Positions 1 to 18,871 of a stretch of DNA of 64,000 nt are shown piece after piece (the stretch's first letter is position 1; each line of letters starts with the position of its first letter). The stretch comes from Parcubacteria group bacterium (GTDB taxonomy: Bacteria; Patescibacteriota; Minisyncoccia; Phycocordibacterales; Phycocordibacteraceae), in NCBI GenBank assembly GCA_028286605.1, contig JAQBRE010000007.1, positions 44,537-108,536 of the forward strand, read 5' to 3'. Both the position numbers and the translations under genes were made by a program. The notes under the pieces are model-generated. The model did no database searches. It was given only the letters and a program-made list of their open reading frames with translations, and was not told where the DNA came from.

Positions 1-3000
1 TCTGACTACACGGGATACGCATACATCGGCGGAACGACCACACGCATCACGAACATACAGAATTACTTCAGCACCACCGGCGGTGTAACGAAGCAGATGC
101 TTGATGAGTCGATCGATGCAGCGACGCTGAGCTTGAGCGGAAACAGCAGTGGAGGCGGCGGCACGACGGTAATCACGGGCGGAGGAGGATTCAGTGGCGG
201 CGCGCTAAGCGCAACGACCGGCGACTTTTCGAGCGACGTGAACGTAGACGGAAACTTCACACTTGCAGGAACGCTCGCGAGCGCGGGTGAGATCAGTGCG
301 CCATTCTTTACTGCCACATCGCTCGCTGCGACGTCGACACTTCCGAACATCATTTCGAATTCATTCAGTATCGGCGGTGACACGATTACGGATTTCACCG
401 GAACGGGCCTTGCAGTCGTGAATGGAAAACTTACTGCGACAGCAACGACATCGAATGCATTCCAGCAGGGGGGAAATATCTTCGGCACGACTGCGACCCT
501 CGGTACGCAGGATGCGAACCCACTCGCATTCATCACGAACAACATCGCACGCATGACGATTGATGCAGCAGGCAACGTTACGGTCGGCACGACGACATCT
601 GCATCACTGCTTACGATCGGCGGTGATACGCGCGGCGATACGTTCACGGCAGTCGGCACAGGCACCTCGACGCTTCCGCGTCTTGCAACGAGCGCGCTCG
701 CGCTCGGCAACGATTACGTGACGGGCTTCACCGGCAACGGTCTTGCGGTCGTCGGCGGCGTGCTCGGCCTCGCCGGCAGCAACAATTATTTCTCGACGAC
801 CTCGTCTGACTTCTGGCTGGGTACGAAGAGCACGAGCGATCTTGCGGAGGGTTCCAAGCTGTACTTCACGAATGCGCGCGCAGACGCGCGCATCAATGCG
901 ACCACTACCATCGGTACGCTCACTTCCGCGCCTAACCTCGGTACGCTTTCAACGACGCTCACGGGCATCGTGAAGGCAACGAGCGGTGTGCTCTCGAGTG
1001 CGGTTGCCGGAACAGATTACGAGAACCCGCTTGCATTCGTGTATCCATTGCAGCGAACGCTTAATAGCATCAGTCTTGCATTCGGTACTACCACCGCAAA
1101 CTCATGGAGCCAGCTGCAATCCTTCGGCAACATAACTGCAGCGAACGCAACCACTACGACGCTCGATGCTACTACGCTTGGCCTCGGCAATTCATACTTC
1201 ACCTCGCTCCTTGGTAGCGGCCTGCAGAATGTTGGTGGCGTACTCACGCTTGATCGCACGGGTGACTGGACCGGCACATTCGGCGGCCAGATCCCTAGCT
1301 ATTATCTAGATAGTGCGAATCAGACTGGCGTTCTTGCGCAGGCAAACGGCGGCACGGGCATCGGCAGCTTTAATCCAGGCGATATCCTGTATGCCGATAA
1401 CATGGGTACGCTGACGACGCTTCCTGTCGGTTCAACAGGCCAGGTGCTCAAGATACAGGCTGGATTGCCGCAATGGGGCGTTGACGCGACGGTCGGTGCC
1501 GGCGGTTCAGACGGAATCTTCGCGACATCTTCTGGCCTAGTCTATCCACTCGATACAAGCAATACCTTGCTTGTCGGCACGAACGCAACCTCGACGACAA
1601 ACAGTATCTTCGAAGTGCATGGTCAGAGCTACTTCTCATCGAAGCTCAGCATTGCGACTACCACCGCGCCGGTAGCGCTCTCTGTAGGTGGTTCAGGCTA
1701 CTTCACAGGCGGCCTCGGTGTTGGCATTCTTAATACGGTTGCTGGTACATTGCGCACCTCGGGCGCTGCGGACATCGGAGGTAACCTTATCGTGACGGGC
1801 GCAACCACGCTTGCTTCTGCAACCTCCTCTTCGTTCTTCACTTCGAACTTCGGTATCGGCAGCACGTATTTCAGCTCGCTTACCGGCGCAGGACTCCTTG
1901 ATACCGCAGGCGTGTTGACGCTCGACACGACAGGCAACTGGGCGGGTACATTCAATGGCCACGCCAGCTCGTTCTATCTTGATGCGACGAACTTGAATAA
2001 TTTTGGAACGCCGTTCTACACGTTCCTTCACGCAACAACTACCGACGCGCTCGCAGAAGGTGTTTCGCATCTGTACTTCACGGATGCGCGCGCAGATGCG
2101 CGCATAAACGCGACCTCGACCATCGGCACGCTCACTTCCGCGCCGAACCTCGGAACAGTATCGACGTCGTTGAACGGTTTGCTTAAGGCAACGAGCGGCG
2201 TGCTCTCTGTTGCTTCTGCGGGGACAGACTTCCAGGCGCCGATAACTGCAAGCTACCCGGTACTCTTCTCTGGAAATAATGTTTCGCTCGCATTCAGTAC
2301 GACCACTACGAATAGCTGGTCATCGCTTCAGACATTCGGCGCAGGCTTCGTTTCGCAGGCTTCCTCGACGGTTGCTGGTCCGCTTACGGTCTCGGGTGCC
2401 TTCACGATTCCAAGTGTCACGAATGCATTGCTTTCATCGAATGGAAGCGGAGTCGTAGGGGCAACGACGATCGGAAACGGCCTTGCGTTCAGTGCAAATA
2501 CGCTTTCCGTCTCAACATCGTCGCTTGCGTCCGGTTTCTTCAAGCAGAGCGGAAATGCATTCGGCACTACGGCAGTACTCGGTACTACCGATAGTAATGC
2601 GCTTACGTTCATAACCAGCAACACAGAGCGCGCACGATTCGATACCTCCGGTAATTTCGGCATCGGCACCAGCTCGCCCTCGCAGCTTCTTTCGGTGCAG
2701 GGAAGCGGGTTGTTCTCTGGAAACATTTCTGCCGCGAATGTAACGGCAACGGGCTCGCTCGCTGTTGTAGGAGTAACTAACACCGGCAATGAGCAGATCA
2801 CGGGCGGCCTCGGTGTCGGTGTCGTAAACACGACGGCCGGTACGATCGTTACAACCGGCGCGATCACTACCGGCTCTCAGTTCATCGGTCTTGCGAGCGA
2901 TGGCGTCTCCGCACCATCCTTCACCTGGGCTACCGACATCACGACCGGTATCTATCATGCTGCCGGCAACACCATCGGCTTCACTACTGCTGGTGTCGGA

Positions 3001-6000
3001 CGTGCGGTCATCGACGGCAACGGTAATCTCGGCATCGGCAGCACTTCGCCTGCAGCGAAGCTTTCCGTTGAAGGAAACGCGCTCATTCACGGCACGGCAA
3101 CCATCGACGGCTTGGGAAGCGGCCTCGTGAAATCTACGAATGGCTTGCTTGGGCTCGCGGTTGCGGGTACTGATTACGCGGCACCCTTCACCGCAACGTA
3201 TCCGATCCTGTTCTCCGCGAATAATCTTTCGCTCGCATTCGGCACGACCACCGCGAACTCATGGAGCCAGCTCCAGCAGTTCAATGGAGCTGCGTCGTCG
3301 ACGCAGCTCACTGTTACGGGCAACACTTATCTTGCGACGAACGCAGGCAGCGTTGGTATCGGAACTTCCTCGCCGTTCACGACACTTGGTGTTGCGGGCA
3401 CGGTCTTCGCAAGTGGAAACATAACGACGACAGGAACGCTCACTGCGACTGCGCTTGGTACGCATTTCGCCGTTGCTTCGAATAACGGCACGCTTACGGC
3501 GCCGAATGCGTTCGTCGACACGTTCCTTAATGATGTCTCTCAACAATCTGTCGTGACAGGATTTTTTGGAATAAACACAAGTACGGGAGGATTTTATCGA
3601 ACGCTTACCGGCACTGCCGGTCAGATAACGGTTGCGAATGGTAGCGGGGCGGGAGGAAATCCAACATTCTCGCTTCCAACGGCAATTACAGGGGTGAACA
3701 GCATCACCGCAGCAGCAAGCACGAACCTTACCCTCGCGTCGGGAGGTTCGAGTGCTACGAGCGTACTTCTTACTCCTAACGGGGGTGGGGTCGGTATCGG
3801 TACCACCTCGCCCTCGCAGCTTCTTTCGGTGCAGGGCAACGGCCTTTTCTCCGGAAACATCGCCGTTGCAAATATCACGGCGACAGGAACTCTTGCTACG
3901 GCTGGTATCACTGATTCTGGAAACGCGCAGATAACCGGAGGGCTCGGTGTCGGAACAGTAAATACTACGGCCGGTACGATCGTTACAACCGGCGCCATCA
4001 CCACCGGCTCTCAGTTCATCGGTCTCGCCTCAGACGCTGTAAATACGCCATCCTTTACCTGGGCTGGCGACCTTACGACCGGCATCTACCACGCTGCGGG
4101 CAACACCATCGGCTTCACCACTTCAGGCGTTGAGCGCGCACGCATCGATGGCAACGGATTCCTCGGCCTTGGTTCGACCACGCCATCCACACGCCTTTCC
4201 GTGGAGGGCAACGCGCTCATTCACGGCACGGTTACGGTTGATGGGCTCGGTTCAGGATTGGTTAAGTCTACGAATGGAACGCTTGGGCTCGCGGTCGCGG
4301 GTACTGACTATGAAAATCCGTTGACATTCAATGCACCGCTTTCACGTACTGTGAATGCAATATCGATATCACAGGCAACTGTATCTACGAACGGATATCT
4401 TGCCTCTGCAGATTTCAATCTCTTTAATAATAAAGTTTCTTCCACTTCACTTTCGGGTGCTTCGGTAATCTCCTATACCTCGGGTACAGGGGTCATAACC
4501 ACTACGGGCGGTACATTCGGAGGTGGGAATTATGTTTTCCCTGCGAACACTTCGGTTGCGGGTAATCTTATAGCAAATACCATTCAACGTGTATTAAATA
4601 CAAGCACACAGAATATTGGCACCACCTCAACGGTAGTATTAGGTGCAGGAGGCACAACGAATATCGTCGGAGGTAATGCTTCGTTTTCAGGTGCAGGCGG
4701 CAACGTAACGCTTACGGGAGGCACCGGAATTGCTGCAGGAGGAAATATTGTTATCAATGCGGGGACTGGCGCATCAACTGGCAGCATCCTTCTTGGAAGC
4801 ACGGCTGGGTTCGTGGGTATCGCCACCTCCACGCCTGGTTCGCTTCTTTCCATCGGAGGCGTCGCAAACTTCACCGCAGCGACCTCGACCTTATATGGTA
4901 GCGGGGGAATCAATCTGAGCGCGGGTTGTTTCGCGATCAACGGCGCATGCGTCGGCGGTAATACGCTTTCGTTCTCCTACCCGCTTACGCTTAGCGGCAC
5001 GAATGTGTCGCTCGCATTCGGCACTACCACGGCGAACACTTGGAGCGCACTCCAGACATTCAACGGCGGCGTGAGCGCATCAACGATCATTACTTCGGGC
5101 GCAATCACCACCGGCTCTCAGTTCATCGGCCTCGCTTCAGACGGCGCCTCTGCACCATCCTTCACCTGGGCCGGTGATCTCACGACGGGTATCTATCATG
5201 CCGCCGGTAATACTATCGGCTTCACGACGAGCGGCGTTGAGCGCGCACGCATCGATGGCAACGGATTCCTCGGCCTTGGTTCCACCACGCCATCCACACG
5301 CCTTTCCGTTGAAGGGAATGCGCTCATTCACGGCACGGCAACCATCGACGGCTTGGGAAGCGGCCTCGTGAAATCTACGAATGGCTTGCTTGGGCTCGCG
5401 GTTGCCGGTACCGATTACCTTGCTCCTGGTTCACTTTCTGCAACGTATCCAATTCTTTATTCGGGAAATAACTTCTCACTTGCATTCGGCACGACCACCG
5501 CGAACTCATGGAGCGCACTTCAGACATTCAACGGCGGTGCTTCAACGACGCAGCTCACTTCAACCGGCAGTACCTATCTTGCAACGACGGGTGGCAATGT
5601 AGGTGTCGGAACGGCAGCGCCAGCTTTCAAACTTGATGTTGCAGGACCGATAAATACGGATATATTCTCGGGTTACTACCAGGGTGGTAAGTTGTTGGCT
5701 TACGCGTCTTCTACGAACGACGATACGATCTTCGGTCTTGGTTCAGGCGGACAAAATGCCACCACAAGCGCAGCGATCAAATCGCTAACGGCATTCGGCT
5801 TCAATGCGTTGGCGGCTAATACCACAGGTAACGTTAACAACGCGTTCGGAGCAAATGCTCTCGCGGCAAACACGACAGGCGGAGGGAACAACGCGTTCGG
5901 AGCAAATACGCTCACGGTGAATATCTCAGGCAGCCTCAACGACGCGTTCGGAAACGGTGTCCTTATCCGTAACACAACAGGTTCTGGTAACAATGCTATT

Positions 6001-9000
6001 GGCAGCGGCGTTCTCTCCAACAACACGACTGGTTCTAATAATAATGCCATCGGCAGTCTTACTCTCGTAGGTAATACCACTGGTTCTAATAATAATGCCA
6101 TCGGCAATCTGGCCCTCAACGGCAACACCGGCAACAGCAACAGCGCTCTTGGCGATCAAGCAGGGTCTGTTACTACCGCCGGCAGCCAGAACCTCTTCCT
6201 CGGCGCACAGTCGAACACGATAGGAGCTGGATATATCAGCACCGGCTCCAACAACATCGGCATCGGCTACAACACGCTCTTCCCGAGCGCAACAGCAAGC
6301 AACCAGCTGAACATAGGTAACTTCATATACGGTACGATTGCCGCGACTTCGAGCGCAAGCACTTTCAGCGCGCCGGGTACCGGCCTCCTCGGTATCGGTT
6401 CCTCGACGCCAGGCTCGCTCCTTTCTATCGGCAACACGAACGGCATCAACTTCTCGACAGCGACTTCAACGTTCTCTTCAACGGGAGGTATCAACCTCAC
6501 GAACGGTTGTTACGCAGTAAACGGTGTCTGTGTCGGAACGAACGCAGGAACTGTAACTTCCGTTGACGCATCCGGCGGCACCACCGGCCTCACGTTCAGC
6601 GGCGGCCCTGTTACTACAAGCGGAACACTCGCGCTCGCAGGAACGCTCGTTGTTGCGAACGGTGGTACAGGAAGCACGACCCTTTCAGGTCTCTTGAAAG
6701 GAAACGGAACAGGATCACTCCTTACTGCGATTGCAGGGACCGATTACCTTGCTCCTGGTTCACTTTCTGCAACGTATCCAATTCTTTATTCGGGAAATAA
6801 CTTCTCACTTGCATTCGGTACCACGACTGCAAACTCATGGAGCCAGCTTCAGACGTTCACCTCAGGGTTTGTTTCTCAGGCATCGTCGACAATAACAGGT
6901 GTCCTTAACCTGGGTAACAATGTGAACTTTAACGAAGCAGGTACCACGACGCTTAAGACGCCTGATCAATCGAGCGGCAATATAGGATCGATCTTAATCT
7001 CAACAGGCGCGGTTAGTGGTGTTGCAAACCCGGGGAATATCACGATTATGCCAGGAAACTCGCCTGGCTCTGGGGGTAATGTCCTTATTAAGGGCGGTTC
7101 CGCAGGATTCGGGACGCCTGGAAACGTAACAATACAGCCAGGGATAGGTATTTCGGCTGGATACGCATTACTGGCATCTAACGGAGGCTTAGTAGGTATT
7201 GGTGCAACCACAACTCCTTCGCAGCTTCTTTCGGTGCAGGGCAATGGCCTCTTCTCCGGAAACATCAGTGCGGCGAACCTTACCGCAACAGGTACCGTTA
7301 CAACGGCAAACCTTACACTCGCAGCGCTTAACGGTCCGCTACAAGCGATCAACGGTGTCGTCTCTGCAACGACTTCTATTGGCGTTGTGTATGGCGGTAC
7401 GGGCTCAACGACGCTCACCGGCCTACTGAAGGGAAATGGCACAGGATCACTGCTCTCTGCTGTTGCCGGCACCGACTATCAGGCACCTCTTACGTTCGTG
7501 TACCCGCTTCTCAATAGTGCGAATACTATTAGCCTTGATTTTGGTACAACGACAGCGAATACATGGAGCGGCCTTCAGACCTTCGGTGCCGGTTTCGTTT
7601 CGCAAGCATCATCGACTGTTGCTGGCAACTTCACGGCTACTGGCTTTATCAGTACAAGTGGTACGACTGGCGGCTATCAGATTGACAATCAGCTCTTTGC
7701 GTACGGATCGACGACGAGCGGCGCGGTCGTCCTTGGGTTTGGCGCGGGAGGAGACGCCCTCACCACAGGTACTAGCCCGAACGTTGCTATAGGAAATAAT
7801 GCGCTGCATATCAATAGCGGAGGCACCTCGAACGTCGCCATCGGCTATCAGGCTATGCTTGTTAATCAGACAGGTTCAAGCAATACCGCTATCGGTTCGC
7901 AGGCACTGATCTTTAACCAGACAGGTTCAAGCAATACTGCTATCGGTCAGCAGGCGCTCAACTCTAATACGGTAGGCAGCAACAACGTCGGCATAGGAGC
8001 AAATGCTCTTCAAAACAATACGACAGCTACGAATACGGTCGCGATCGGCGTGTTCGCAGCTGGAGGTTCGGCAGCCTATACAAACCAAGGCGGAACGTAT
8101 GTTGGTTATTCGTCCGGATTCAGCGCGCATAGTTCCTCGGACTACAATTCGTTCTTCGGATATCAGTCTGGCGCGCAGGACACTACCGGAAACGACAACA
8201 TTTTCATTGGCGCACAGCCTAACTTCAGCGGCGCTGGGTATGTGACCACGGGCGCGAACGATATCGGCCTCGGTTTCAATACGCGCTTCCCAAGTGCAAC
8301 GGCAAGCAACCAGCTGAACATCGGTAACTTTATCTATGGAACACTGCCTGCCACCACGACGGCAAGCACCTTCAGCGTACCGACGGCAGGGCATCTCGGT
8401 ATCGGTTCCTCCTCTCCGTATGCAAAGCTTTCGGTCCATGCAAATAATGGGTCGACTGACACGACGCTCTTCTCGATCGGATCTTCCACCGCAAGCTTGA
8501 CGACGACACTCTTGAGCGTTAGCAACACCGGTGTCATCACGTCGAATGCTGCCGCAACCTCGACGTTCACGAACGGTATCGCTCTCACGGGTGGTTGCGT
8601 GAGCGTGAATGGCGCATGTATCGGTGTTGGTTCGGCCGGTACGGTAACCAGCGTTGACGCAGTTGGCGGCACCACCGGCCTCACGTTCAGTGGCGGCCCC
8701 ATTACTTCAAGCGGCGTTCTCACGCTTGCCGGCACCCTTGGTGTTGCGAACGGCGGCACAGGCGCAGTTACACTCACCGGCCTCGTGAAGGGAAACGGTA
8801 CCGGCGCATTCACCGCAGCAGTTGCCGGTACGGACTACCAGGCACCGCTCGCGTTCACGTATCCACTCGTGAATACGGCGAATACGATCTCGCTCGCATT
8901 CGGTACCACGACTGCGAACACGTGGAGCCAGTTGCAGCAGTTCAACGGCGGTGCTTCAACGACGCAGCTCACTGTTACGGGCAGCACCTATCTTGCAACG

Positions 9001-12000
9001 ACTGGAGGGAACGTCGGTGTCGGAACGGCAGCACCAGCATTCAAGCTCGATGTTGCAGGACCAATCAATACGAATATATTCTCGGGTTACTATCAGGGCG
9101 GCCAGCTGCTTGCCTATGCGTCTTCCACGAACGGTGCTACGATCTTCGGCCTTCAGGCAGGCGGACAGAACGCCACCACAAGCGCATCGGCCATCAGCTT
9201 AACGGCAATTGGATTCAAGGCATTGTCCGCAAACACCACCGGTTTCGCCAACACTGGAGTAGGTTTCTCCTCCCTCATTTCTAACACCACCGGTTTCGAC
9301 AACACCGCTTTCGGTATCAGCGCACTCGGCGGCACCACTATTGGCAGCAACAACGTGGCGGTTGGTGCCAGCGCACTCTTTGGAAACGTTTCAGGTACCA
9401 ACAACGTTGCTGTTGGTATTAATGCACTTGGTGCGGATATTTCAGCAACTACCACCGTAGCTGTGGGATCCGGCGCTGGGTGGGGATCGGGTAACTACTC
9501 GAATCAGGGCGGTACGTACCTTGGATATCAAGCAGGAACATTCCTTGCAAACGGCTCAGATTACAACACGCTGCTCGGATATCAGTCTGGTTCGCAGGTT
9601 ACTTCCGGATACGGAAACATCTTGGTGGGACCATCGGTTTCTAGTAACAACCTCACGACAGGTTCAGGCAACATAGGTATCGGATATAACCTTTCTTTCC
9701 CTGCAGCTTCTACGAATAATTATCTCAACATCGGCAGCCTGATCTTCGGCACGCTACCAGCGACGACCACCTCACTGACGGCACCAGTTTCAGGTCTGCT
9801 CGGCATCGGTACCACTTCGCCGTACGCGAAACTCAGCGTCCAAAGCAATAACGGCGACACCGCAACAACGCTCTTCGCGATCGGTTCATCCACCGCATCG
9901 CTTAACAGCACACTGTTCAGTGTCAGCAACACCGGTGTGATCACGTCGAATGCTGCAGCAACGTCAACGTTCACGAACGGTATCGCTCTCACGGGCGGCT
10001 GCGTAAGCGTGAACGGTACCTGTCTTGGTACTGGCAGTGGGGGCGTTACTTCCGTAAACGCAGTCGGCGGCACCACCGGCCTCACGTTCAGTGGCGGGCC
10101 GATTACAAGCTCGGGCACACTCACTCTTGCCGGCACGCTCGGCGTTGCGAATGGCGGCACGGGTTCAACCACGCTCACCGGCCTACTGAAGGGAAATGGC
10201 ACAGGATCACTCCTCACTGCCGTTGCCGGTACGGATTATCTCGCGCCAGGCTCGCTCTCTGCGACGTATCCGATTCTCTACAGTGCTAATAATTTCTCAT
10301 TGGCCTTCGGTACGACGACCGCTAATACATGGTCTTCGCTTCAAACGTTCACTTCAGGACTTATCTCGCAGGCATCCTCAACATTCAGCGGTTCATTGAA
10401 TGTTACGGGCTCTTCGTACTTCGGCGCGAATGTAGGTATCGGTACCACGACTGCAGCACAGCTGCTTACGCTTTCAGCTGCTGATACAAGTACATCGCTG
10501 ATTACGGCAGCACTTGCTTCTGAATCGATCATCAATAGCGATACTACGAACAACAATACTGCGGACCTCGTTTTCAAGACTGCTGATACCGCTGGCGCTA
10601 CCGTTGTTGGTACGAAACTTGCAACAGTCTTCACGTCGCACACGCCGAGCGGCGTCTCAGCTGATCTTGCATTCATAACCCGAAACGCAGGCACGCTCTC
10701 TGAGAAGCTGCGTCTCACGGCTGCCGGTAATCTCGGTGTCGGCACTACCACGCCTTCACAGGCACTCTCTGTTCAGGGTAATGGTCTCTTCTCTGGAAAC
10801 ATAAGTTCAGCGAACGTTACCGCTACCGGTACTATCACGACACCTAATCTCACGATCGCAGCGCTTAATGGTCCGCTACAGGCAAACAACGGTGTTGTAT
10901 CCGCAACGACTTCAATTGGAGTGCAGTACGGCGGTACGGGAGCAATCACCCTCACCGGTCTTATAAAGGGAAATGGTACGAGTGCGTTCACCGCAGCAGT
11001 AGCAGGAACGGACTACCAGGCCCCGCTCGCGTTCACGTATCCATTGGTTAATACCACCAACACCATTTCGCTTGCGTTCGGCACGACGACGGCGAACTCA
11101 TGGAACAGTCTCCAGCAATTCAATGGCGGACTGACTGCTTCAACGATCACGACGACAGGCAGTGTCGGTATCGGCACAAGTACTCCTGGTTCACTCCTTT
11201 CTATAGGTACTACGAATGGCATTAACTTCAGTACGGCAACATCAACCTTCAGTTCGACGGGCGGCATCAACCTTACGAATGGATGCTACGCAGTGAACGG
11301 CGTGTGTCTTTCAACGGGCGGCGGTACATTCACCAATACGCTTGCGAATGGCGGTACTGCAACAACTACCTTCTACGCAGGCGGTTTGGTATTTAGCGAC
11401 GGCACGAAGCTTACGCAGGCTTCGGGCTCTGGAGCAAGCATTCTTAGCTGGAACAACACGAACGGATTCCTTGGCATCGGCTCAAGCAGCCCTTCGTATG
11501 CGCTTTCCGTTCAGGGTACCAGCGGCATACGTGTGAAGACCACAACGAACACTGCCGCTGCGCTGGGTATCGAAAACTCACAAGGCACGACAACCCTCCA
11601 GGCCGACACTCTTGATTCAAGCGATTCGATCTTCTCTGTCGCAACCTCTACGGGTAACACGTACTTCTACGTGGGAGCTGGCGGAAACGTAGGTGTCGGC
11701 ACGACCACGCCGCTTTCCGCGCTTGCTATCGGCGGCGCAGGAGGTCTTTCCGTGGGAGCAGACTACAACATCGCAGCGCCAACGAACGGTGCGATCATCG
11801 AAGGCGGGTTAGGTGTCGGCACCACTTCTGTCATGAATAACGACGCGCTTGATGTAAGCGGCGCAGTGTACATCAACGGCACAGGCACCAACCCACTTGC
11901 TCTTTCGGTAGGCGCTACCGCCGCCGCAACCCCGAGCTTCAGCGTAGATCAAAGCGCTGGTATCGGTACGGGTCTCTCCGTAGTAACGAATCTCGTGGGA

Positions 12001-14175
12001 TCAGGAGTTACGCTGCAGGGTCTTTCTAGTGCTGCAAACGAGAACTTTAATATACTCTCGAAGGGAGGCGGTAACATCAAGCTGTTCTCTAACGGAGGTT
12101 CGATTCAGGTTTCAACCGCATTCGGAAGCCAATATACGTTTGCTGCGACTGCTCTTACTATCACCGGCTTCACCGCTGCCGCGAGCGGCAACCACTTCTC
12201 CGTCGTAGGGGGTATCGACACCGCCATCACCGCTGCTACAGAATCGTCTGATGTGTATTTCAACCTTGGTCAGACGCGCACCAACTTATCCAATACTGCT
12301 GTTTCAACTTTCCGAGATTTCCGTATAACGGGCTCGACGCACGCATTCGCTACTGCTGGCGGCGTGATAAACAATGCCGCAGGATTCTCGGTTGACTTGC
12401 CAGATAGCGCCGGCACTAACGCAACGATAAGCACCTCATCAGCTATCTATGTTCCTGGAGGTGCAGTCACGGGTACGGTATCAACAAGTACTGCCGCAAA
12501 CCTTCTTGCCTCGACAGGAGCAACGAATAACTTCGCGCTTACGACGAACGGTCGAGTAGTCCACAGCAGCCTCACTGCCGGTGCTGGCGCAGGATCCGTC
12601 TGTATGAGCGCTACCGGTGAATTGCTCTTCGACAGCGGGGCGAACTGTATCGTGTCCACACCGCTCGCGAAGCACAATATTCATGGCATCTCAGATGCGC
12701 AGGCAGATGAAGTGCTAAGTCTCGACGCTATCCAGTACGACTACAACGACGGAAGCGGTACTCGTTACGGTTTCAATGCATTGCAGGCCGCGAGCATCGA
12801 TCCAACACTCGTGGTTTATGCAGCGTCTGACATACAGGTAGTTGGTGCTGATGGAAATCCTGTAACCGTAGCGAAGGGCCAGCCATATACCTTCGACTAT
12901 GGTCGCTACACGGGCCTTCTTACTGCTGAAGTACAGAAGCAGCAGAAGCAGATAAGCCTGCTTGCAAGCACGACGCTTGCAGCGGCGGCATCCGCAGGCG
13001 CTCCTGCGCCCGTTGCAGCAACCACTCTTTCTGCGAATTCAATCTACACGCAGAGCCTCACTATTAAGGGCAATGCATTCGCGACATCGTTCGTCGCACC
13101 GGCAACGCCGATTACGTTCACGATCGGTTCTACAACGGGCACGCTGCCAAATGAAGTGCTTGCATCAGATGGCAGTGGCGTAGACCTCTATAAGGCAGCG
13201 ACGTATGCAATCACCGGCGTGCAAGCGCTCCAGGCGCAGACGGGCGTGCTCGCGAGCCGTCTTGATGCGGTCGAACTGCGCGTGACGATGCTCGAAGCTG
13301 AAGCGTCGAGTACGCAAGCAGTAGGCAGCGGCACGCTCTCGCTCGCCGGCTTCGAGGATCTGCTCGGCCAGATCGGCGTTATCGTGAAGGACGGCATCGC
13401 GCACTTCACATCGCTCGCCTTCACGAACCTGATATCAGCACCAGCCGCAGACGGTACGTCGGCAGTAGCAACGAGCACGATAGCGATGGGTGATACGCAG
13501 GCAGTAGTGGTAAACAATCTCGCGCATCCGACTTCGGAAATCTTCGTTACCATCACCTCTCCGCTTAATGGAAGCTGGTACATCAGCCAGAAGGGCGAGG
13601 GAAGCTTCACGATCAATCTTTCGAGTCCGCAGACCGCAGACGTGACCTTCGACTACTTCATCGTGCAGACGGAAAAGGGGGCAACGCAGGTCGCGAGCGT
13701 AGCGAGCGCCCCGGTGCAGACGCCTGCGCAGTATCCTGATCAGACACCAGTTGATCCGAGTGCATCAACGACACCTGCAGCATCTACGAATGCACCGACC
13801 ATAACGCTTACCGGCAGTGCCGCAATTGATATCGCGCAGGGTGCTCCATGGACTGACCCGGGTGCAATCGCGCAGGACGCAGCAGGGAAAGATCTTACCG
13901 CGCAGATCGCGGTAACAGGCAGCGTTGATACGAATACTGCAGGCCTGTACACGCTTAACTACTCGGTTGTTGATTCTGCCGGAGCGAGCGCAGGCGTATC
14001 ACGTATCGTGCATGTTTCGGCACCGGTAGTATCAAGCCCACCTGCTGAAACCGCGCCGCCCGCAGACACCTCTGCTCCGGTGCAGACACCTGCATCTGAT
14101 CCAGCTACTCCCGCAGCGTCTGCGCCAAGCCCGGTAACAGCTGACGCGGGCGCTACTCCGTCCACAGGCGGCTAA
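1..14175 (+). CDS. Giant repetitive surface/fibre protein (5' end outside window; >4,700 aa) with C-terminal peptidase-S74-like intramolecular chaperone domain, Ig-like (DUF5011-type) domain and Pro/Ala/Ser-rich tail
   Basis: The reading frame of the ORF at 97..14175 is open back to nt 1. The upstream translation SDYTGYAYIGGTTTRITNIQNYFSTTGGVTKQ has the same G/T/S/A-rich composition, so the gene starts upstream of the window. About 11 recurrences of the motif AGTDY.AP..F.YP.....ISLAFGTTTAN(S/T)WS.LQ(T/Q)F. Five C..NG.C loops. Near the C-terminus, STPLAKHNIHGISDAQADEVLSLDAIQYDYNDGSGTRYGFNALQ...GQPYTFDYGRYTGLL fits the S-x4-K / Y.Y.DGS signature of tail-fibre intramolecular chaperones. This is followed by ITLTGSAAIDIAQGAPWTDPGAIAQDAAGKDLTAQIAVTGSVDTNTAGLYTLNYSVVDSAG (DUF5011-like Ig fold). 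Confidence 0.8.
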   Translation, partial: SDYTGYAYIGGTTTRITNIQNYFSTTGGVTKQMLDESIDAATLSLSGNSSGGGGTTVITGGGGFSGGALSATTGDFSSDVNVDGNFTLAGTLASAGEISAPFFTATSLAATSTLPNIISNSFSIGGDTITDFTGTGLAVVNGKLTATATTSNAFQQGGNIFGTTATLGTQDANPLAFITNNIARMTIDAAGNVTVGTTTSASLLTIGGDTRGDTFTAVGTGTSTLPRLATSALALGNDYVTGFTGNGLAVVGGVLGLAGSNNYFSTTSSDFWLGTKSTSDLAEGSKLYFTNARADARINATTTIGTLTSAPNLGTLSTTLTGIVKATSGVLSSAVAGTDYENPLAFVYPLQRTLNSISLAFGTTTANSWSQLQSFGNITAANATTTTLDATTLGLGNSYFTSLLGSGLQNVGGVLTLDRTGDWTGTFGGQIPSYYLDSANQTGVLAQANGGTGIGSFNPGDILYADNMGTLTTLPVGSTGQVLKIQAGLPQWGVDATVGAGGSDGIFATSSGLVYPLDTSNTLLVGTNATSTTNSIFEVHGQSYFSSKLSIATTTAPVALSVGGSGYFTGGLGVGILNTVAGTLRTSGAADIGGNLIVTGATTLASATSSSFFTSNFGIGSTYFSSLTGAGLLDTAGVLTLDTTGNWAGTFNGHASSFYLDATNLNNFGTPFYTFLHATTTDALAEGVSHLYFTDARADARINATSTIGTLTSAPNLGTVSTSLNGLLKATSGVLSVASAGTDFQAPITASYPVLFSGNNVSLAFSTTTTNSWSSLQTFGAGFVSQASSTVAGPLTVSGAFTIPSVTNALLSSNGSGVVGATTIGNGLAFSANTLSVSTSSLASGFFKQSGNAFGTTAVLGTTDSNALTFITSNTERARFDTSGNFGIGTSSPSQLLSVQGSGLFSGNISAANVTATGSLAVVGVTNTGNEQITGGLGVGVVNTTAGTIVTTGAITTGSQFIGLASDGVSAPSFTWATDITTGIYHAAGNTIGFTTAGVGRAVIDGNGNLGIGSTSPAAKLSVEGNALIHGTATIDGLGSGLVKSTNGLLGLAVAGTDYAAPFTATYPILFSANNLSLAFGTTTANSWSQLQQFNGAASSTQLTVTGNTYLATNAGSVGIGTSSPFTTLGVAGTVFASGNITTTGTLTATALGTHFAVASNNGTLTAPNAFVDTFLNDVSQQSVVTGFFGINTSTGGFYRTLTGTAGQITVANGSGAGGNPTFSLPTAITGVNSITAAASTNLTLASGGSSATSVLLTPNGGGVGIGTTSPSQLLSVQGNGLFSGNIAVANITATGTLATAGITDSGNAQITGGLGVGTVNTTAGTIVTTGAITTGSQFIGLASDAVNTPSFTWAGDLTTGIYHAAGNTIGFTTSGVERARIDGNGFLGLGSTTPSTRLSVEGNALIHGTVTVDGLGSGLVKSTNGTLGLAVAGTDYENPLTFNAPLSRTVNAISISQATVSTNGYLASADFNLFNNKVSSTSLSGASVISYTSGTGVITTTGGTFGGGNYVFPANTSVAGNLIANTIQRVLNTSTQNIGTTSTVVLGAGGTTNIVGGNASFSGAGGNVTLTGGTGIAAGGNIVINAGTGASTGSILLGSTAGFVGIATSTPGSLLSIGGVANFTAATSTLYGSGGINLSAGCFAINGACVGGNTLSFSYPLTLSGTNVSLAFGTTTANTWSALQTFNGGVSASTIITSGAITTGSQFIGLASDGASAPSFTWAGDLTTGIYHAAGNTIGFTTSGVERARIDGNGFLGLGSTTPSTRLSVEGNALIHGTATIDGLGSGLVKSTNGLLGLAVAGTDYLAPGSLSATYPILYSGNNFSLAFGTTTANSWSALQTFNGGASTTQLTSTGSTYLATTGGNVGVGTAAPAFKLDVAGPINTDIFSGYYQGGKLLAYASSTNDDTIFGLGSGGQNATTSAAIKSLTAFGFNALAANTTGNVNNAFGANALAANTTGGGNNAFGANTLTVNISGSLNDAFGNGVLIRNTTGSGNNAIGSGVLSNNTTGSNNNAIGSLTLVGNTTGSNNNAIGNLALNGNTGNSNSALGDQAGSVTTAGSQNLFLGAQSNTIGAGYISTGSNNIGIGYNTLFPSATASNQLNIGNFIYGTIAATSSASTFSAPGTGLLGIGSSTPGSLLSIGNTNGINFSTATSTFSSTGGINLTNGCYAVNGVCVGTNAGTVTSVDASGGTTGLTFSGGPVTTSGTLALAGTLVVANGGTGSTTLSGLLKGNGTGSLLTAIAGTDYLAPGSLSATYPILYSGNNFSLAFGTTTANSWSQLQTFTSGFVSQASSTITGVLNLGNNVNFNEAGTTTLKTPDQSSGNIGSILISTGAVSGVANPGNITIMPGNSPGSGGNVLIKGGSAGFGTPGNVTIQPGIGISAGYALLASNGGLVGIGATTTPSQLLSVQGNGLFSGNISAANLTATGTVTTANLTLAALNGPLQAINGVVSATTSIGVVYGGTGSTTLTGLLKGNGTGSLLSAVAGTDYQAPLTFVYPLLNSANTISLDFGTTTANTWSGLQTFGAGFVSQASSTVAGNFTATGFISTSGTTGGYQIDNQLFAYGSTTSGAVVLGFGAGGDALTTGTSPNVAIGNNALHINSGGTSNVAIGYQAMLVNQTGSSNTAIGSQALIFNQTGSSNTAIGQQALNSNTVGSNNVGIGANALQNNTTATNTVAIGVFAAGGSAAYTNQGGTYVGYSSGFSAHSSSDYNSFFGYQSGAQDTTGNDNIFIGAQPNFSGAGYVTTGANDIGLGFNTRFPSATASNQLNIGNFIYGTLPATTTASTFSVPTAGHLGIGSSSPYAKLSVHANNGSTDTTLFSIGSSTASLTTTLLSVSNTGVITSNAAATSTFTNGIALTGGCVSVNGACIGVGSAGTVTSVDAVGGTTGLTFSGGPITSSGVLTLAGTLGVANGGTGAVTLTGLVKGNGTGAFTAAVAGTDYQAPLAFTYPLVNTANTISLAFGTTTANTWSQLQQFNGGASTTQLTVTGSTYLATTGGNVGVGTAAPAFKLDVAGPINTNIFSGYYQGGQLLAYASSTNGATIFGLQAGGQNATTSASAISLTAIGFKALSANTTGFANTGVGFSSLISNTTGFDNTAFGISALGGTTIGSNNVAVGASALFGNVSGTNNVAVGINALGADISATTTVAVGSGAGWGSGNYSNQGGTYLGYQAGTFLANGSDYNTLLGYQSGSQVTSGYGNILVGPSVSSNNLTTGSGNIGIGYNLSFPAASTNNYLNIGSLIFGTLPATTTSLTAPVSGLLGIGTTSPYAKLSVQSNNGDTATTLFAIGSSTASLNSTLFSVSNTGVITSNAAATSTFTNGIALTGGCVSVNGTCLGTGSGGVTSVNAVGGTTGLTFSGGPITSSGTLTLAGTLGVANGGTGSTTLTGLLKGNGTGSLLTAVAGTDYLAPGSLSATYPILYSANNFSLAFGTTTANTWSSLQTFTSGLISQASSTFSGSLNVTGSSYFGANVGIGTTTAAQLLTLSAADTSTSLITAALASESIINSDTTNNNTADLVFKTADTAGATVVGTKLATVFTSHTPSGVSADLAFITRNAGTLSEKLRLTAAGNLGVGTTTPSQALSVQGNGLFSGNISSANVTATGTITTPNLTIAALNGPLQANNGVVSATTSIGVQYGGTGAITLTGLIKGNGTSAFTAAVAGTDYQAPLAFTYPLVNTTNTISLAFGTTTANSWNSLQQFNGGLTASTITTTGSVGIGTSTPGSLLSIGTTNGINFSTATSTFSSTGGINLTNGCYAVNGVCLSTGGGTFTNTLANGGTATTTFYAGGLVFSDGTKLTQASGSGASILSWNNTNGFLGIGSSSPSYALSVQGTSGIRVKTTTNTAAALGIENSQGTTTLQADTLDSSDSIFSVATSTGNTYFYVGAGGNVGVGTTTPLSALAIGGAGGLSVGADYNIAAPTNGAIIEGGLGVGTTSVMNNDALDVSGAVYINGTGTNPLALSVGATAAATPSFSVDQSAGIGTGLSVVTNLVGSGVTLQGLSSAANENFNILSKGGGNIKLFSNGGSIQVSTAFGSQYTFAATALTITGFTAAASGNHFSVVGGIDTAITAATESSDVYFNLGQTRTNLSNTAVSTFRDFRITGSTHAFATAGGVINNAAGFSVDLPDSAGTNATISTSSAIYVPGGAVTGTVSTSTAANLLASTGATNNFALTTNGRVVHSSLTAGAGAGSVCMSATGELLFDSGANCIVSTPLAKHNIHGISDAQADEVLSLDAIQYDYNDGSGTRYGFNALQAASIDPTLVVYAASDIQVVGADGNPVTVAKGQPYTFDYGRYTGLLTAEVQKQQKQISLLASTTLAAAASAGAPAPVAATTLSANSIYTQSLTIKGNAFATSFVAPATPITFTIGSTTGTLPNEVLASDGSGVDLYKAATYAITGVQALQAQTGVLASRLDAVELRVTMLEAEASSTQAVGSGTLSLAGFEDLLGQIGVIVKDGIAHFTSLAFTNLISAPAADGTSAVATSTIAMGDTQAVVVNNLAHPTSEIFVTITSPLNGSWYISQKGEGSFTINLSSPQTADVTFDYFIVQTEKGATQVASVASAPVQTPAQYPDQTPVDPSASTTPAASTNAPTITLTGSAAIDIAQGAPWTDPGAIAQDAAGKDLTAQIAVTGSVDTNTAGLYTLNYSVVDSAGASAGVSRIVHVSAPVVSSPPAETAPPADTSAPVQTPASDPATPAASAPSPVTADAGATPSTGG
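5411..6843 (+). repeat. Intragenic near-identical nucleotide repeats in the giant gene. Example: 5411..5514 and 6740..6843 are about 94% identical. Other families recur at about 2840-3110, 3970-4240 and 5090-5360, and at 8560-8790 and 9950-10180
   Basis: Direct comparison of sequence lines. The coding text ccgattaccttgctcctggttcactttctgcaacgtatccaattctttattcgggaaataacttctcacttgcattcgg occurs twice. Confidence 0.8.
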
Positions 14176-14195: not shown

Positions 14196-15290
14196 ATGCA
14201 TATGAAATTCAGTCCTGTTAAAACATTTCTATTTCCACTAGCGATTTTCGTCTTTTCGTTCTCTTTGGCGCCGCACGCATTCGCGAGCCAGATATTCCTT
14301 ACGGCTAATCCGGGTACGGGTAACCAAACGTTTACAGTTCCTGCAGACTACAGAGCGGCAGGTTCAACCATTCAATGTATTGGTTCTGGGGGTACTGGTG
14401 GCACGAGCACAGCAAACACCACGAGTGCAGGAGGCGGTAGTGGCGGTGCATATGCAAAGATATTCAATCTGTCACTCACTCCTGGCGCGACCGTAACGTA
14501 TGCTGTTGGTGGCTCTGCAACGACCACCGGCGGCACTATAGCGAACGAAACATACTTCAATGGAACCGCTTCTTCGACGGCTTCGCTTTCATGCGCATTC
14601 GGGAAAGCTGCAGCAGGAGTTAGTGCAGGAACAGCTACTCTGTCTGCCAATTCTAAAGGAACGATTATTTTTAATGGAAATAGTGGCGGCGCAGGAACAA
14701 GCGGGGCGGTAGGCGGTGGCGGTGGCGGTGGCGGTTCTGCAGGCCCCCATGGTCTTGGAAGAGTTGCTCTTATTAGTACCGCTACTCGCGGAGGTAGCGG
14801 CGGTGGCGGTTCGGATGGTTTGCAAGCAACTAACGGCGCTCAACCAGCAACCGGCCAAGGTGGTTCGGGAGGAAACGGCTATTCTGGTACCTTAGGCGGT
14901 GCTGGCGGCTTTGCCACGGGTGCTGCTGCAGCAGGTACAAATGGTGCTGGCGGTGGCGGTGGCCAGGCTTTTACAGGTACGAATGGCGGTACCGGTGGTG
15001 CCGGAGGAAATGATACGGCGTTCGATGCGACACATGGTGCTGGCGGTGGCGGTGGCGGTGGCGGTGATGCAACCATAAGTGATCCTGGAGGCGCAGGCGG
15101 AACGTATGGCGGTGGCGGTGGCGGTGGCGGTAACAGTGCATCTACTAATGGCGTCGGCGGCGTCGGCGGTCAGGGCATTATCGTTATTACGTACACGCCC
15201 GCTCAAACGTTAACAAACTTAGTATCTTCAATGCTCCATGTGCTTGGCGGGAAAGTGCGTATCATGGGTGGAAAAGTTATCGTCCAGTAA
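14196..15290 (+). CDS. Secreted glycine-rich protein (Sec signal peptide; poly-Gly runs; C-terminal GQGIIVITYTP)
   Basis: N-terminus MHMKFSPVKTFLFPLAIFVFSFSLAPHAFA-SQ is a signal peptide with an AxA site. The body is more than 40% Gly, with GGGGGGGG runs encoded by (GGC GGT)4 tracts at 14712..14737, 15042..15065 and 15120..15143. It lies 21 nt downstream of the giant gene. Confidence 0.65.
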   Translation: MHMKFSPVKTFLFPLAIFVFSFSLAPHAFASQIFLTANPGTGNQTFTVPADYRAAGSTIQCIGSGGTGGTSTANTTSAGGGSGGAYAKIFNLSLTPGATVTYAVGGSATTTGGTIANETYFNGTASSTASLSCAFGKAAAGVSAGTATLSANSKGTIIFNGNSGGAGTSGAVGGGGGGGGSAGPHGLGRVALISTATRGGSGGGGSDGLQATNGAQPATGQGGSGGNGYSGTLGGAGGFATGAAAAGTNGAGGGGGQAFTGTNGGTGGAGGNDTAFDATHGAGGGGGGGGDATISDPGGAGGTYGGGGGGGGNSASTNGVGGVGGQGIIVITYTPAQTLTNLVSSMLHVLGGKVRIMGGKVIVQ

Positions 15291-17626: not shown

Positions 17627-17986
17627 ATGTTGGATCCTGAGCTCAAGCAAGAATTCGCAAAAATTCACACTCGTCTCGATGAAGAGGTGAAAACAGAATT
17701 TGCTAGGGTTCATAAAGAATTCGCAAAAATAAACAACCGTCTTGATACGGAGTTTGCGGAAATCCATAGTGAATTTGTGAATGTGCATGGCGAAATAGAA
17801 AGCCTTGCAGGGCATATGGCTAATGGGTTTACAGAAATCGATGAGCGCTTTGAACAAGTGGATAATCGCTTCGATAGACTTGAAACTAAGTTTCAGAATC
17901 AGATTGATTCAATTGCAGATCGAAAAGTGGAACGTTCAGAATTTGCACCGATCAAGGCACAAGTACTCAACCTACAAAAACACTAA
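17627..17986 (+). CDS. Small low-GC 11-residue-repeat (EFA.IH..LD) coiled-coil protein, hypothetical
   Basis: EFAKIHTRLDE / EVKTEFARVHK / EFAKINNRLDT / EFAEIHSEFVN repeats. GC is about 40% against about 58% in the flanks. The stop overlaps the tkt start (TAATG). Confidence 0.5.
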   Translation: MLDPELKQEFAKIHTRLDEEVKTEFARVHKEFAKINNRLDTEFAEIHSEFVNVHGEIESLAGHMANGFTEIDERFEQVDNRFDRLETKFQNQIDSIADRKVERSEFAPIKAQVLNLQKH

Positions 17987-18870: not shown

Positions 18871-18871
18871 C

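Follow-up and report, generated by a model that had tools for sequence, protein, structure and literature searches.

A 5,216-residue Parcubacterial protein best read as a giant S74-type trimeric adhesive fibre with a phage-type tip

The gene described here fills the first 14.2 kb of the analysed stretch of DNA (64,000 nucleotides, hereafter the window) and its product is most readily understood as a giant version, in Patescibacteria, of the S74-type trimeric adhesive fibres. The 5,216-aa product is probably a chromosomally encoded cell-surface fibre of a CPR bacterium, composed of a membrane anchor, a trimeric stalk, a phage-type tip, an S74 chaperone domain and a tail with an Ig-like domain and a Pro/Thr-rich end. 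We infer that the fibre is cleaved, trimeric and able to bind a host, and a role in the grabbing of host cells is plausible. An example of such fibres is the S74 subgroup of the mosaic adhesive trimeric (MAT) fibres of Bdellovibrio bacteriovorus, e.g., Bd3182, which are located on the surface of the predator (Caulton et al. 2024, PMC10769870). Cellular S74 fibres have therefore been in print since 2024, and the preliminary description of this DNA, which called such proteins poorly described, is outdated in this respect. No literature linking Patescibacteria, CPR or Parcubacteria with S74, the intramolecular chaperone or tail fibres was found.

Nucleotides 1-14175 of the window (forward strand, frame 1) constitute one open frame of 4,724 sense codons with the stop codon at 14173-14175. 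The frame is open from nt 1, so the gene extends upstream of the window, as had been proposed. The translation is an exact substring, residues 493-5216, of the NCBI entry MDB5266126.1 (P0006, 5,216 aa), recorded as 'hypothetical protein JWM39_839 [Parcubacteria group bacterium]' and derived from a Parcubacteria metagenome-assembled genome (MAG); the full-length ORF measures 15.6 kb. The composition of the window-encoded part (T 15.6, G 15.0, A 12.0, S 11.4 and N 7.6 %) agrees with the earlier description of a Gly/Thr/Ser/Ala-rich protein, and K, R, E and H each account for 1 % or less. All 12 cysteines are paired by position, in five loops and the pair 4201/4216. The NCBIfam search of these 4,724 residues (493-5216) gave no family match. 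The features are listed below; residue numbers are those of the window translation unless given as full-length.

1..14175 (+): 3′ part (14.2 kb) of the giant fibre gene, coding for residues 493-5216 of MDB5266126.1 (5,216 aa), with no in-frame stop before 14173
1..11817 (+): mosaic stalk, aa 1-3939 (~3,950 aa), from motif counts, tile-versus-self BLAST and DNA repeat identity
2593..3114 (+): stalk unit of the MAT beta-helix type, given as an example, aa 865-1038, overlapping the first ITTGSQ...LSVEGNALIHGT module
2863..3096 (+): ITTGSQFIGLASD...LSVEGNALIHGT module, copy 1; copies 2 and 3 at nt 3997-4230 and 5104-5337
4927..4950 (+): C-x3-NG-x-C loop, copy 1 (CFAINGAC); others at 6508-6531, 8596-8619, 10000-10023 and 11284-11307
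6037..6160 (+): beta-roll-like block with a 17-aa period (N-N-x-A-[IFV]-G); further blocks at ~nt 7828-8050 and ~9298-9470
11818..12654 (+): tip domain, aa 3940-4218 (~280 aa), core FRITGSTHAFATAGG...DSAGTNATI, Cys pair 4201/4216
12655..12990 (+): predicted S74-type intramolecular chaperone/autoprotease domain (ICD), aa 4219-4330, from a sub-threshold Pfam match, homologues, AF2 and Foldseek
12655-12657 (+): predicted nucleophile Ser4219 (full-length Ser4711)
12670-12672 (+): predicted general base Lys4224 (full-length Lys4716)
12991..13800 (+): orphan region, aa 4331-4600, comprising an Ala/Pro linker, a brief heptad-like section and a beta-rich segment
13801..14016 (+): Ig-like domain of the bacterial surface type, aa 4601-4672; PF16403 scores 74-76 bits (cutoff 27)
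14017..14172 (+): Pro/Thr/Ala/Ser-rich tail of 52 aa, read directly from the translation

The stalk is a mosaic of diverged Gly/Thr/Ser/Ala/Asn-rich modules. The motifs AGTD[YF] and SLAFGTTTAN[ST]W-type occur in 10 copies each, and about 11 AGTDY...LAFGTTTANxW junctions can be counted, nine with the full combined motif and two with half of it. This count matches the approximately 11 modules described before; their supposed uniform length of 300-400 aa does not hold, as the junctions are unevenly spaced at 244-467 aa. A further motif, [VILF]G[IVLT]G[TSA]xxPxxxL ('GIGTxxPxxxL'), is present in 15 copies against 0.003 expected from shuffles, and the stalk contains five NGGTG..LKGNGT units. The repeats are limited to full-length aa ~480-4440 in tile-versus-self BLAST, and their DNA copies are short (300 nt or less) and 60-89 % identical. 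The five cysteine loops, at aa 1643, 2170, 2866, 3334 and 3762, were counted correctly in the preliminary description and written there with the wrong spacing (C..NG.C), the real motif being C-x3-N-G-x-C, which also occurs in a giant ORF of Saccharibacteria (L023). The three-copy module was likewise recovered, with regex matches of its two ends at aa 955/1021, 1333/1399 and 1702/1768, and corresponds to the DNA repeat family D1 of 74-80 % identity. The motif with the 17-aa period is found at aa 2013/2030/2046, 2610-2678 and 3100-3151. A head of the YadA/Hep_Hag type was considered and rejected, because none of the 1,000-aa pieces has a Hep_Hag or YadA_head Pfam match at E up to 1; the period in these blocks is 17 aa.

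By sequence, some of the stalk modules are homologues of the units that form the intertwined trimeric beta-helix in the Bdellovibrio MAT fibres. In the phmmer search of the PDB, aa 865-1038 matched 8ond_A, the protein Bd2133, at E 2.8e-9 and 8ojn_C (also 8onb/8onc) at E 5e-5. The depositors named 8ojn_C 'Cell wall surface anchor family protein', and we take it to be the MAT protein Bd3182. Such matches to a crystallised trimeric beta-helix support the proposal of a trimeric beta-helical fibre. Homology to phage virion and tail-spike proteins is present as well: within aa 2525-3165 the PHROG matches are a virion structural protein, phrog_6002, at 1e-28 and a tail spike, phrog_4636, at 2e-13. 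The PHROGs gave nothing in the window protein outside aa 2401-3600, and Pfam gave no match on 1,000-aa stalk pieces.

The stalk is followed by the tip domain, which is unique within the protein and has no internal repeats, according to tile-versus-self BLAST. At least 15 further proteins contain it, in most cases immediately before an ICD, and its nearest relatives are located in phage contigs (L033-L037). The cassette of tip and ICD is 40-49 % identical to proteins of such podophage-like contigs, and in two phage proteins the tip immediately precedes a C-terminal S74 ICD, which is the arrangement of a tail fibre. The idea of a co-opted phage tail fibre is thus supported at least for this cassette. 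In IMG/VR a core alignment matched two UViGs and the single-protein query matched none; tblastn of the last modules, tip and ICD against 50,697 GenBank phage records gave no match. The profile of the tip produced only chance antibody matches in the PDB, and the AF2 monomer model from a 19-sequence alignment was unusable (pLDDT 55.5).

The region of aa 4219-4330 is identified, from its homologues and a structural model, as an S74-type intramolecular chaperone. The direct match to PF13884, the check named in the preliminary description, where its failure was to count as a refutation, remained under the curated cutoff (17.5 bits, E 0.005, against 22 bits, aa 4224-4271), and S74 was absent from the whole-protein Pfam scan. 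The identity of the domain holds despite this score because the homologues pass the cutoff, the Ser and Lys are invariant and the AF2 model matches known ICD/ICA structures. Two close relatives that can be aligned with this stretch, P0001 and P0002, score 36.6 and 26.4 bits, and all 10 further top relatives reach 28.7-48.8 bits, so that 12 of the 12 scanned proteins pass. The profile of the chaperone region matches 22,767 proteins; of the 150 best relatives, 149 have S-x4-K, and the close homologues contain the same C-x14-C-x2-S-x4-K stretch. Residues C4201, C4216, S4219 and K4224 are invariant in the 3- and 19-sequence alignments, with the motif S4219-T-P-L-A-K4224. The domain model (pLDDT 83.5) was compared with the PDB by Foldseek, where ranks 1-11 consisted only of the ICA of myelin regulatory factor (MyRF, 7dc3), the endoNF ICD (3gw6) and the GA-1 ICD (3gud), at E 2e-4 to 2e-2; rank 12 had E 0.22, about 100-fold worse. 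At the sequence level, phmmer of the ICD region against the PDB gave no match, and the 3-sequence ICD profile gave only marginal matches to phage fibre ICDs (E 0.01-0.04; T5-type fibre 8hqz, E 0.01). The chaperone assignment made earlier therefore stands, with the exception of 'Y.Y.DGS', which the closest subfamily alone conserves and which is no general S74 signature.

The protein had been thought to end in this domain; approximately 400 residues come after aa 4330. Counted from the matched ICD stretch, 367 aa follow, compared with a median of 4 aa in the 150 best relatives, just 2 of which exceed 250 aa. The orphan region at the beginning of this part belongs to no Pfam or NCBIfam family, and the search of 5.8 billion clusters with the post-ICD region gave one match only, which is fragmentary and 89 % identical. 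The Ig-like domain matches in the PDB the Ig-like domains of BT_2262, chitinase 60 and bacillolysin, and the 52-aa tail, in its translation, lacks a sortase motif. A complete fibre ORF of Saccharibacteria (L012, 2,118 aa) ends in a PF16403 Ig-like domain and a low-complexity tail and has no ICD.

The search for the N-terminus and anchor upstream of the window, proposed with the first reading, led to an HTH_17 domain and a transmembrane (TM) helix within the 492 residues located outside it. The HTH_17 covers residues 9-58 of MDB5266126.1 (30.1 bits, cutoff 27). The sole hydrophobic window of the protein, at residues 110-128, is preceded by a K/R-rich sequence and followed by an Ala-rich unique region. 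Because this sole helix sits in the N-terminus, MDB5266126.1 is probably anchored in the membrane with the N-terminus inside. The same N-terminus is present in two orthologues (L002 and L003) and in many giant ORFs of Patescibacteria. The HTH, being of DNA-binding type at the cytoplasmic end, is a point against the fibre reading. Release of the HTH by ICD cleavage, as in MyRF, is ruled out by the predicted topology: about 4,600 residues separate the cytoplasmic HTH from the ICD on the outside, so the cleavage cannot free it.

The gene is surrounded by housekeeping genes. Downstream lie the genes of GAPDH, RpiB, Rpe, transketolase, FBA, RF, PheT, GyrB, DnaE, SMC and RNase R, and the upstream side of the orthologous locus contains SecA, Obg and GatB; no paralogue of S74 or the tip occurs elsewhere in the window. 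A prophage origin is ruled out by these glycolysis/pentose-phosphate and replication/translation flanks, with no virion genes nearby. Together with the Parcubacteria MAG as the source, such neighbours support the earlier view of a cellular CPR gene.

The mechanism proposed for the fibre begins at the membrane, where the helix would act as an N-in signal anchor, in accordance with the positive-inside rule, and the remainder of the chain would be exported and project from the cell. The chaperone domain may then register three chains at the C-terminal end and nucleate the folding of tip and stalk into a trimer. Subsequently, Ser4219, activated by Lys4224, would cut the chain and release the chaperone with the ~500-aa C-terminal piece, by which the tip would be exposed as the distal, ligand-binding end. 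A precedent for such cleavage and for an adhesive role is offered by Bd3182, which cuts itself at S782 and is no longer cut when it carries S782A (PMC10769870). The length of the fibre, scaled from Bd3182 (~0.7 Å per residue), could reach up to ~0.3 µm, roughly the diameter of a CPR cell, and such a reach would suit the capture of a host cell or attachment to it. The functional end product is uncertain, because the cleavage would discard the Ig-like domain, which is the normal C-terminus of the ICD-less Saccharibacteria relative.

The reality of the giant frame has to be considered together with its relatives. An assembly artefact, in which smaller fibre genes were collapsed or chimerically joined across the repeats, is suggested by the origin of the sequence from a MAG with many internal repeats and by the fact that the sole other assembly with the region is a 2.3-kb Logan contig over the 3′ end. 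This explanation is highly improbable: repeats of the identity and length given above are unlikely to be collapsed by assemblers and leave no collapse signature, which answers the doubt raised with the first reading, and the frame is unbroken for 15.6 kb. Independent MAGs, C7867-007 and C7867-008, contain ORFs of >2,242 and >4,154 aa that share the start of the gene and are 58 % identical over 1,257 aa, and other Patescibacteria have a complete 4,651-aa ORF and open >5,329-aa ORFs with shared modules. The two closest orthologues are collinear with the gene only over the first ~1,257 aa, beyond which the module order differs; the search with the N-terminal region returned no full-length orthologue, and none with the same C-terminus was recovered.

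Two further explanations concern the function of the parts. The S74 domain may serve as an internal trimerisation clamp, either uncleaved or cleaved and still attached, in which case the distal end would be formed by the Ig-like domain and the Pro/Thr tail and the tip would be one more stalk module. The internal position of the ICD, with its exceptionally long following part, the Saccharibacteria fibre with the same ending and no ICD, and the sub-threshold Pfam score all favour this possibility, which is nevertheless unlikely, given that Ser4219 and Lys4224 are invariant as in proven autoproteases (PMC10769870), the model matches catalytically competent ICDs, and the relatives have the tip immediately before a terminal ICD, an arrangement where the cleavage exposes the tip. 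Less probable still is a structural part of the envelope without adhesin function, e.g., a coat resembling a glycocalyx or S-layer, a spacer or a connector between cells, to which the phage-like modules would contribute only rigidity. In favour of it, many Patescibacteria have giant ORFs that share modules and the HTH-TM anchor and differ in their terminus, the protein has few charged residues and is Gly/Thr/Ser-rich, and the fibrous material of Vampirococcus not only faces the host but also lies between sibling cells (PMC8080830). Against it speak the tip shared with phage proteins, in two of which it directly precedes the terminal S74 ICD, and the divergence of module order past ~1,257 aa, which is expected for variation of the host-range type; moreover, the S74 fibres of known function are adhesins or depolymerases (PMC10769870).

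Within the preferred reading of an S74-armed adhesive fibre, a more specific model can be put forward tentatively. The CPR episymbiont could recognise its host by a receptor-binding tip shared with phages, in the form of a swappable cassette of tip and S74 domain on a giant HTH-TM stalk typical of the family, and the cleavage would be an arming step which sheds the ~500-aa Ig-like cap. If this is true, the host-recognition modules are common to phage and epibiont, which compete for them or exchange them, and the widespread HTH_17-TM giant fibres are general host-range determinants of Patescibacteria. To our knowledge, little is understood of how the ultrasmall CPR/Patescibacteria find and hold their hosts beyond type IV pili, and S74-armed cellular fibres have so far been shown in Bdellovibrio only. 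With the present gene the concept would reach another host-dependent lineage, unrelated to the first, and an exchange of modules among phages and epibionts is suggested. The HTH-TM signature offers a handle for finding the whole family in other Patescibacteria, and the tip domain is a possible probe for the host.

The MAT fibres are similar to MDB5266126.1 in several respects. Both are chromosomal and phage-tail-fibre-like, with a cell-surface location that is predicted for MDB5266126.1, mosaic stalks related by their beta-helix sequences, an S74 chaperone with Ser-x4-Lys behind the tip domain and an apparent swapping of tips or modules between relatives; the bearer of MAT lives on other bacteria, and so, presumably, does the CPR source. 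[quoted passage not shown] Unlike the MAT bearer, the CPR host of the gene is presumed to be monoderm, and the S74 domain, in contrast to MAT, is internal, with the Ig-like domain among the residues after it. The strict MAT capping-loop consensus V-G-G/N-small-x-x-P-x-x-x-L has 0 matches, and the related 15-copy motif is shifted by one residue. Additional module types are the AGTDY junctions, the C-x3-NG-x-C loops and the 17-aa beta-roll blocks.

Phage fibres and tailspikes with a C-terminal chaperone, such as the K1F endosialidase (3gw6), the GA-1 neck appendage (3gud) and the T5 L-shaped fibre pb1, have the same chaperone fold and Ser/Lys spacing. They differ from MDB5266126.1, which is encoded among housekeeping genes and not near virion genes, is predicted to be anchored in a membrane and not on a baseplate, does not end in its ICD and is about ten times longer than typical phage fibres. 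The best structural match of the chaperone domain is the MyRF ICA (E 2e-4, TM 0.5-0.6), and both proteins combine an internal ICA/ICD with a DNA-binding domain in a membrane protein. In MyRF these two domains are on the same side of the membrane and the cleavage frees a transcription factor, whereas in MDB5266126.1 they would be on opposite sides. Among CPR bacteria, Vampirococcus lugosii has giant membrane proteins of 1,392-4,163 aa, which were proposed to form fibrous host-contact material (PMC8080830). The likeness to MDB5266126.1 lies in the giant size and the membrane localisation; compared by description, the Vampirococcus proteins contain WD40, PKD, DUF11, integrin and fibronectin-type domains, with no S74 or tail-fibre architecture reported (PMC8080830). 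If a typical CPR genome size of ~1 Mb is assumed for the source, the 15.6 kb devoted to MDB5266126.1 alone take up more than 1 % of the genome.

The open frame at the start of the window belongs to a protein of 5,216 aa (P0006, NCBI MDB5266126.1), encoded on a 121.5-kb contig; an exhaustive HMMER search found its residues 493-5216 to be identical to the window translation. As the preliminary description had it, the frame (frame 1, + strand) is open from nt 1, and it runs for 4,724 codons to a stop at 14173-14175. The N-terminus and a putative anchor, which were to be sought upstream, are present in the 492 residues preceding the window, in the order HTH_17 domain, K/R-rich stretch and hydrophobic segment. 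Because the K/R-rich stretch precedes the hydrophobic segment, the latter is a putative N-in signal anchor by the positive-inside rule. The domains at both ends of the protein are as follows:

P0006 residues 9-58, upstream of the window: HTH_17 domain (30.1 bits, cutoff 27)
P0006 residues 110-128: the sole hydrophobic window of the whole protein, after the K/R-rich stretch
Window aa 3940-4218: distinct tip domain, the 280 residues preceding the chaperone domain (ICD)
Window aa 4219-~4330 (nt 12655-12990, + strand): S74-type intramolecular chaperone, accepted
Window aa 4331-4600: orphan region, its sole match fragmentary and 89 % identical
Window aa 4601-4672: PF16403 bacterial-surface Ig-like domain (74-76 bits)
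C-terminal 52 aa: Pro/Thr/Ala/Ser tail, by composition

The part between these ends is a repetitive stalk. The window protein has an extreme composition: none of K, R, E and H exceeds 1 %, against 15.6 % for T, 15.0 % for G, 12.0 % for A, 11.4 % for S and 7.6 % for N. The repeats are limited to window aa ~1-3950 by tile-versus-self BLAST, and the final ~775 residues are unique. The junction motif reported for the modules is present: AGTD[YF] and the SLAFGTTTAN[ST]W type each occur 10 times, combined in full at 9 junctions and as a half motif at 2. The junctions lie 244-467 aa apart, a wider range than the 300-400 aa given for the modules. The three ITTGSQFIGLASD...LSVEGNALIHGT modules were counted again, as were the five Cys loops, the real pattern of which is C-x3-NG-x-C rather than C..NG.C; a sixth pair, 4201/4216, completes the pairing of all 12 cysteines. 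The pattern [VILF]G[IVLT]G[TSA]xxPxxxL was observed 15 times, against 0.003 expected from shuffled sequences. Collapse of the repeats during assembly had been named as an alternative, and there is no hint of it, since the DNA-level copies share only 60-89 % identity and none is longer than 300 nt.

Part of the stalk is related to the mosaic adhesive trimeric (MAT) fibres of Bdellovibrio. In a phmmer search against PDB sequences, window aa 834-1060 match the fibre Bd2133 (8ond, E 2.8e-9). They also match 8ojn/8onb/8onc (E 5e-5), a 'Cell wall surface anchor family protein' by its deposited name, which we interpret as the tip of Bd3182. The alignment passes through the ...TERARFDTSGNFGIGTSSPSQLLSVQG... 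unit. Such crystallised MAT units form an intertwined trimeric beta-helix (PMC10769870). The strict published consensus of the MAT capping loop has no match in the window protein, the register being shifted by one residue. Three stalk blocks consist of N-N-x-A-[IFV]-G repeats with a period of 17 aa and coincide with PHROG matches to virion structural and tail-spike families. An identity of these blocks as YadA heads was rejected, as they contain no Pfam YadA or Hep_Hag domain.

The proposed Peptidase_S74 domain falls short of a direct Pfam match: PF13884 aligns to window aa 4224-4271 with 17.5 bits (E 0.005, cutoff 22) and is unlisted in the whole-protein Pfam scan. Taken alone, such a score would count against the domain, as the preliminary description itself proposed, but it is overturned by four independent lines. 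The nearest homologues, at 49 % identity, are P0001 and P0002; they align over a shared C-x14-C-x2-S-x4-K stretch and pass the cutoff with 36.6 and 26.4 bits, respectively. The three-sequence profile retrieved 22,767 proteins at E <=1e-3, and all 10 top matches scanned pass PF13884 (28.7-48.8 bits). In a 19-sequence alignment C4201, C4216, S4219 and K4224 are invariant, and 149 of the 150 best profile matches carry S-x4-K. The AlphaFold2 model of window aa 4190-4345 (mean pLDDT 83.5) matches in the PDB, at Foldseek ranks 1-11, only the MyRF ICA (7dc3; E 2e-4, TM 0.5-0.6), the endosialidase ICD (3gw6) and the GA-1 ICD (3gud), with rank 12 at E 0.22. On these grounds the domain is accepted, with a predicted catalytic dyad of Ser4219 and Lys4224 (full-length 4711 and 4716). 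Of the signature first quoted for it, S-x4-K is conserved, whereas 'Y.Y.DGS' is conserved in the nearest subfamily only.

The tip domain occurs in at least 15 other proteins, usually immediately before a terminal ICD, and its nearest relatives reside in phage-like contigs. P0001 adjoins an SU10-type adaptor, a collagen-like protein and an M23 peptidase, and P0002 lies in a similar module. A further homologue, P0004, is located immediately behind a P22-type portal, with a P22 coat protein and RusA close by. Two viral genomes in IMG/VR carry the tip domain. The match of the giant protein to these contigs is confined to the tip and the ICD. The monomer model of the tip is poor (AlphaFold2, pLDDT 55), which an intertwined trimer would lead one to expect. 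The phage-like contigs that carry the tip, with or without ICD, are the loci L033 (9506-11554), L034 (1975-3657), L035 (10001-11365), L036 and L037. Their GC content is 40-47 %, against 54.6 % in the window.

The chaperone was thought to end the protein; this was wrong, as about 400 residues follow aa 4330. The window protein extends 367 aa beyond the matched ICD stretch, while in the 150 best relatives this tail has a median of 4 residues and exceeds 250 in only 2. The LAEG..LYFTNARADARI...AGTDY module was found in 31 genome loci, mostly from Patescibacteria (Kaiserbacteria, Paceibacterota, Nomurabacteria, Saccharibacteria, Magasanikiibacteriota and Gracilibacteria), the others from Bdellovibrionota and a small number of further phyla. 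Among the Patescibacterial ORFs, many reach giant size (one of 4,651 aa is complete; those of >5,329, >4,189 and >3,472 aa are open-ended), and many begin with an HTH-like, basic and TM N-terminus; among 8 N-termini tested, HTH_17 was above cutoff in 4 and sub-threshold in 3 more. A complete Saccharibacterial ORF (L012, 8072-14425; 2,118 aa) has this N-terminus and ends in PF16403 (68 bits) and a low-complexity tail, without ICD/S74. The Ig-like end thus seems to be the usual terminus of the family, and the window protein resembles a typical member of the family in its anchor, stalk and C-terminus, with a cassette of phage-type tip and ICD set before the end. The HTH_17-like, basic and single-TM arrangement was noted at P0006 residues 1-130, L003 8525-8950, L005, L006, L009, L010, L012, L013, L018, L021 and L023. 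In L028 and L029 (Patescibacteria/Gracilibacteria), the matching ORFs appear to be just 24-30 aa under table 11, probably because UGA is a sense codon in these lineages.

Orthologues sharing the same start are present in the Parcubacteria MAGs C7867-007 (L002, >2,242 aa) and C7867-008 (L003, >4,154 aa), both ORFs running beyond the locus ends. They are collinear with P0006 over the first ~1,257 aa (58 % identity), past which their module order differs. This divergence points to fast reshuffling of modules in the distal part of the stalk.

The analysis shows how the domains are ordered, what they are homologous to and that the dyad is conserved; the path of assembly that follows is inferred. 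The signal anchor would insert the chain N-in, and the other ~5,090 residues would be exported. The ICD would register three chains and nucleate trimer folding from the C-terminal end. Ser4711 and Lys4716 would then cut the chain. The ICD, orphan region, Ig-like domain and tail would be shed as one fragment of ~506 aa, and the tip would be exposed as the distal end that binds. This cleavage is putative, and the functional end may be either the tip or the Ig-like C-terminus. Release of the HTH through ICD cleavage was ruled out, because the two domains sit on opposite sides of the membrane; the HTH is a DNA-binding-type fold at the cytoplasmic end of the fibre. Bd3182 (922 aa, ~550 Å; PMC10769870) gives a scale of about 0.7 Å per residue, by which the fibre is predicted to measure ~0.3 µm. 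The likeliest role is host-cell attachment or capture, by analogy with MAT fibres and with the CPR epibiont Vampirococcus, which has fibrous host-contact material and giant membrane proteins (PMC8080830).

That phage fibres and spikes carry S74 chaperones is long established. In cells, S74 fibres were demonstrated in 2024, in Bdellovibrio (PMC10769870). A full-text search found no literature joining Patescibacteria, CPR or Parcubacteria to S74, intramolecular chaperones or tail fibres, and an S74 fibre in this lineage is new. In contrast to a MAT fibre, the protein is five to six times larger and an HTH_17-TM anchor replaces the MAT N-domain. Two more features are new: the ICD lies inside the chain and is followed by an Ig-like extension, and the tip cassette is tied directly to phage contigs.

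The neighbours of the gene are the following:

Downstream in the window: Gly-rich secreted protein, GAPDH, RpiB, Rpe, split transketolase, class I aldolase, pilin-like protein, ribosomal protein L25, SLT-domain protein, peptide-chain release factor, tRNA-Thr, PheT, GyrB, DnaE, SMC and RNase R
Upstream of the orthologue: SecA, HI0933-like flavoprotein, Obg, GatB and a small HTH-TM protein

A prophage origin was rejected on account of these housekeeping neighbours on both sides, the upstream side being read in the orthologue's locus; the fibre gene is a core-chromosome gene. The 64,000-nt window holds no second fibre-, tip- or ICD-like ORF. Four ORFs of 329-689 aa (39285-40490, 40598-42667, 24913-25962 and 25944-26933, + strand) have no Pfam family at E <=0.001-0.01 and no relation to the fibre by BLAST or HMM. 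A 364-aa ORF (14196-15290, + strand) begins 21 nt past the fibre-gene stop and has a signal-peptide-like N-terminus followed by extremely Gly-rich (GGxGG) sequence, with no Pfam family. The same gene order is repeated on an independent 2.3-kb Logan contig, and the product could serve the fibre as a secreted partner or matrix protein. Immediately upstream of the orthologous giant gene, L003 6768-7769 (+ strand) encodes a 333-aa protein that matches HTH_17 weakly at its N-terminus, is acidic over a long middle part and has a TM helix at its C-terminus, a second HTH-membrane protein beside the fibre gene. The split transketolase, with N and C halves as separate genes, the class I fructose-bisphosphate aldolase and the pilin-like protein, with an N-terminal methylation motif, occupy 17986-19873, 21080-22078 and 22084-22650, respectively. 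Split transketolase genes are common in CPR genomes.
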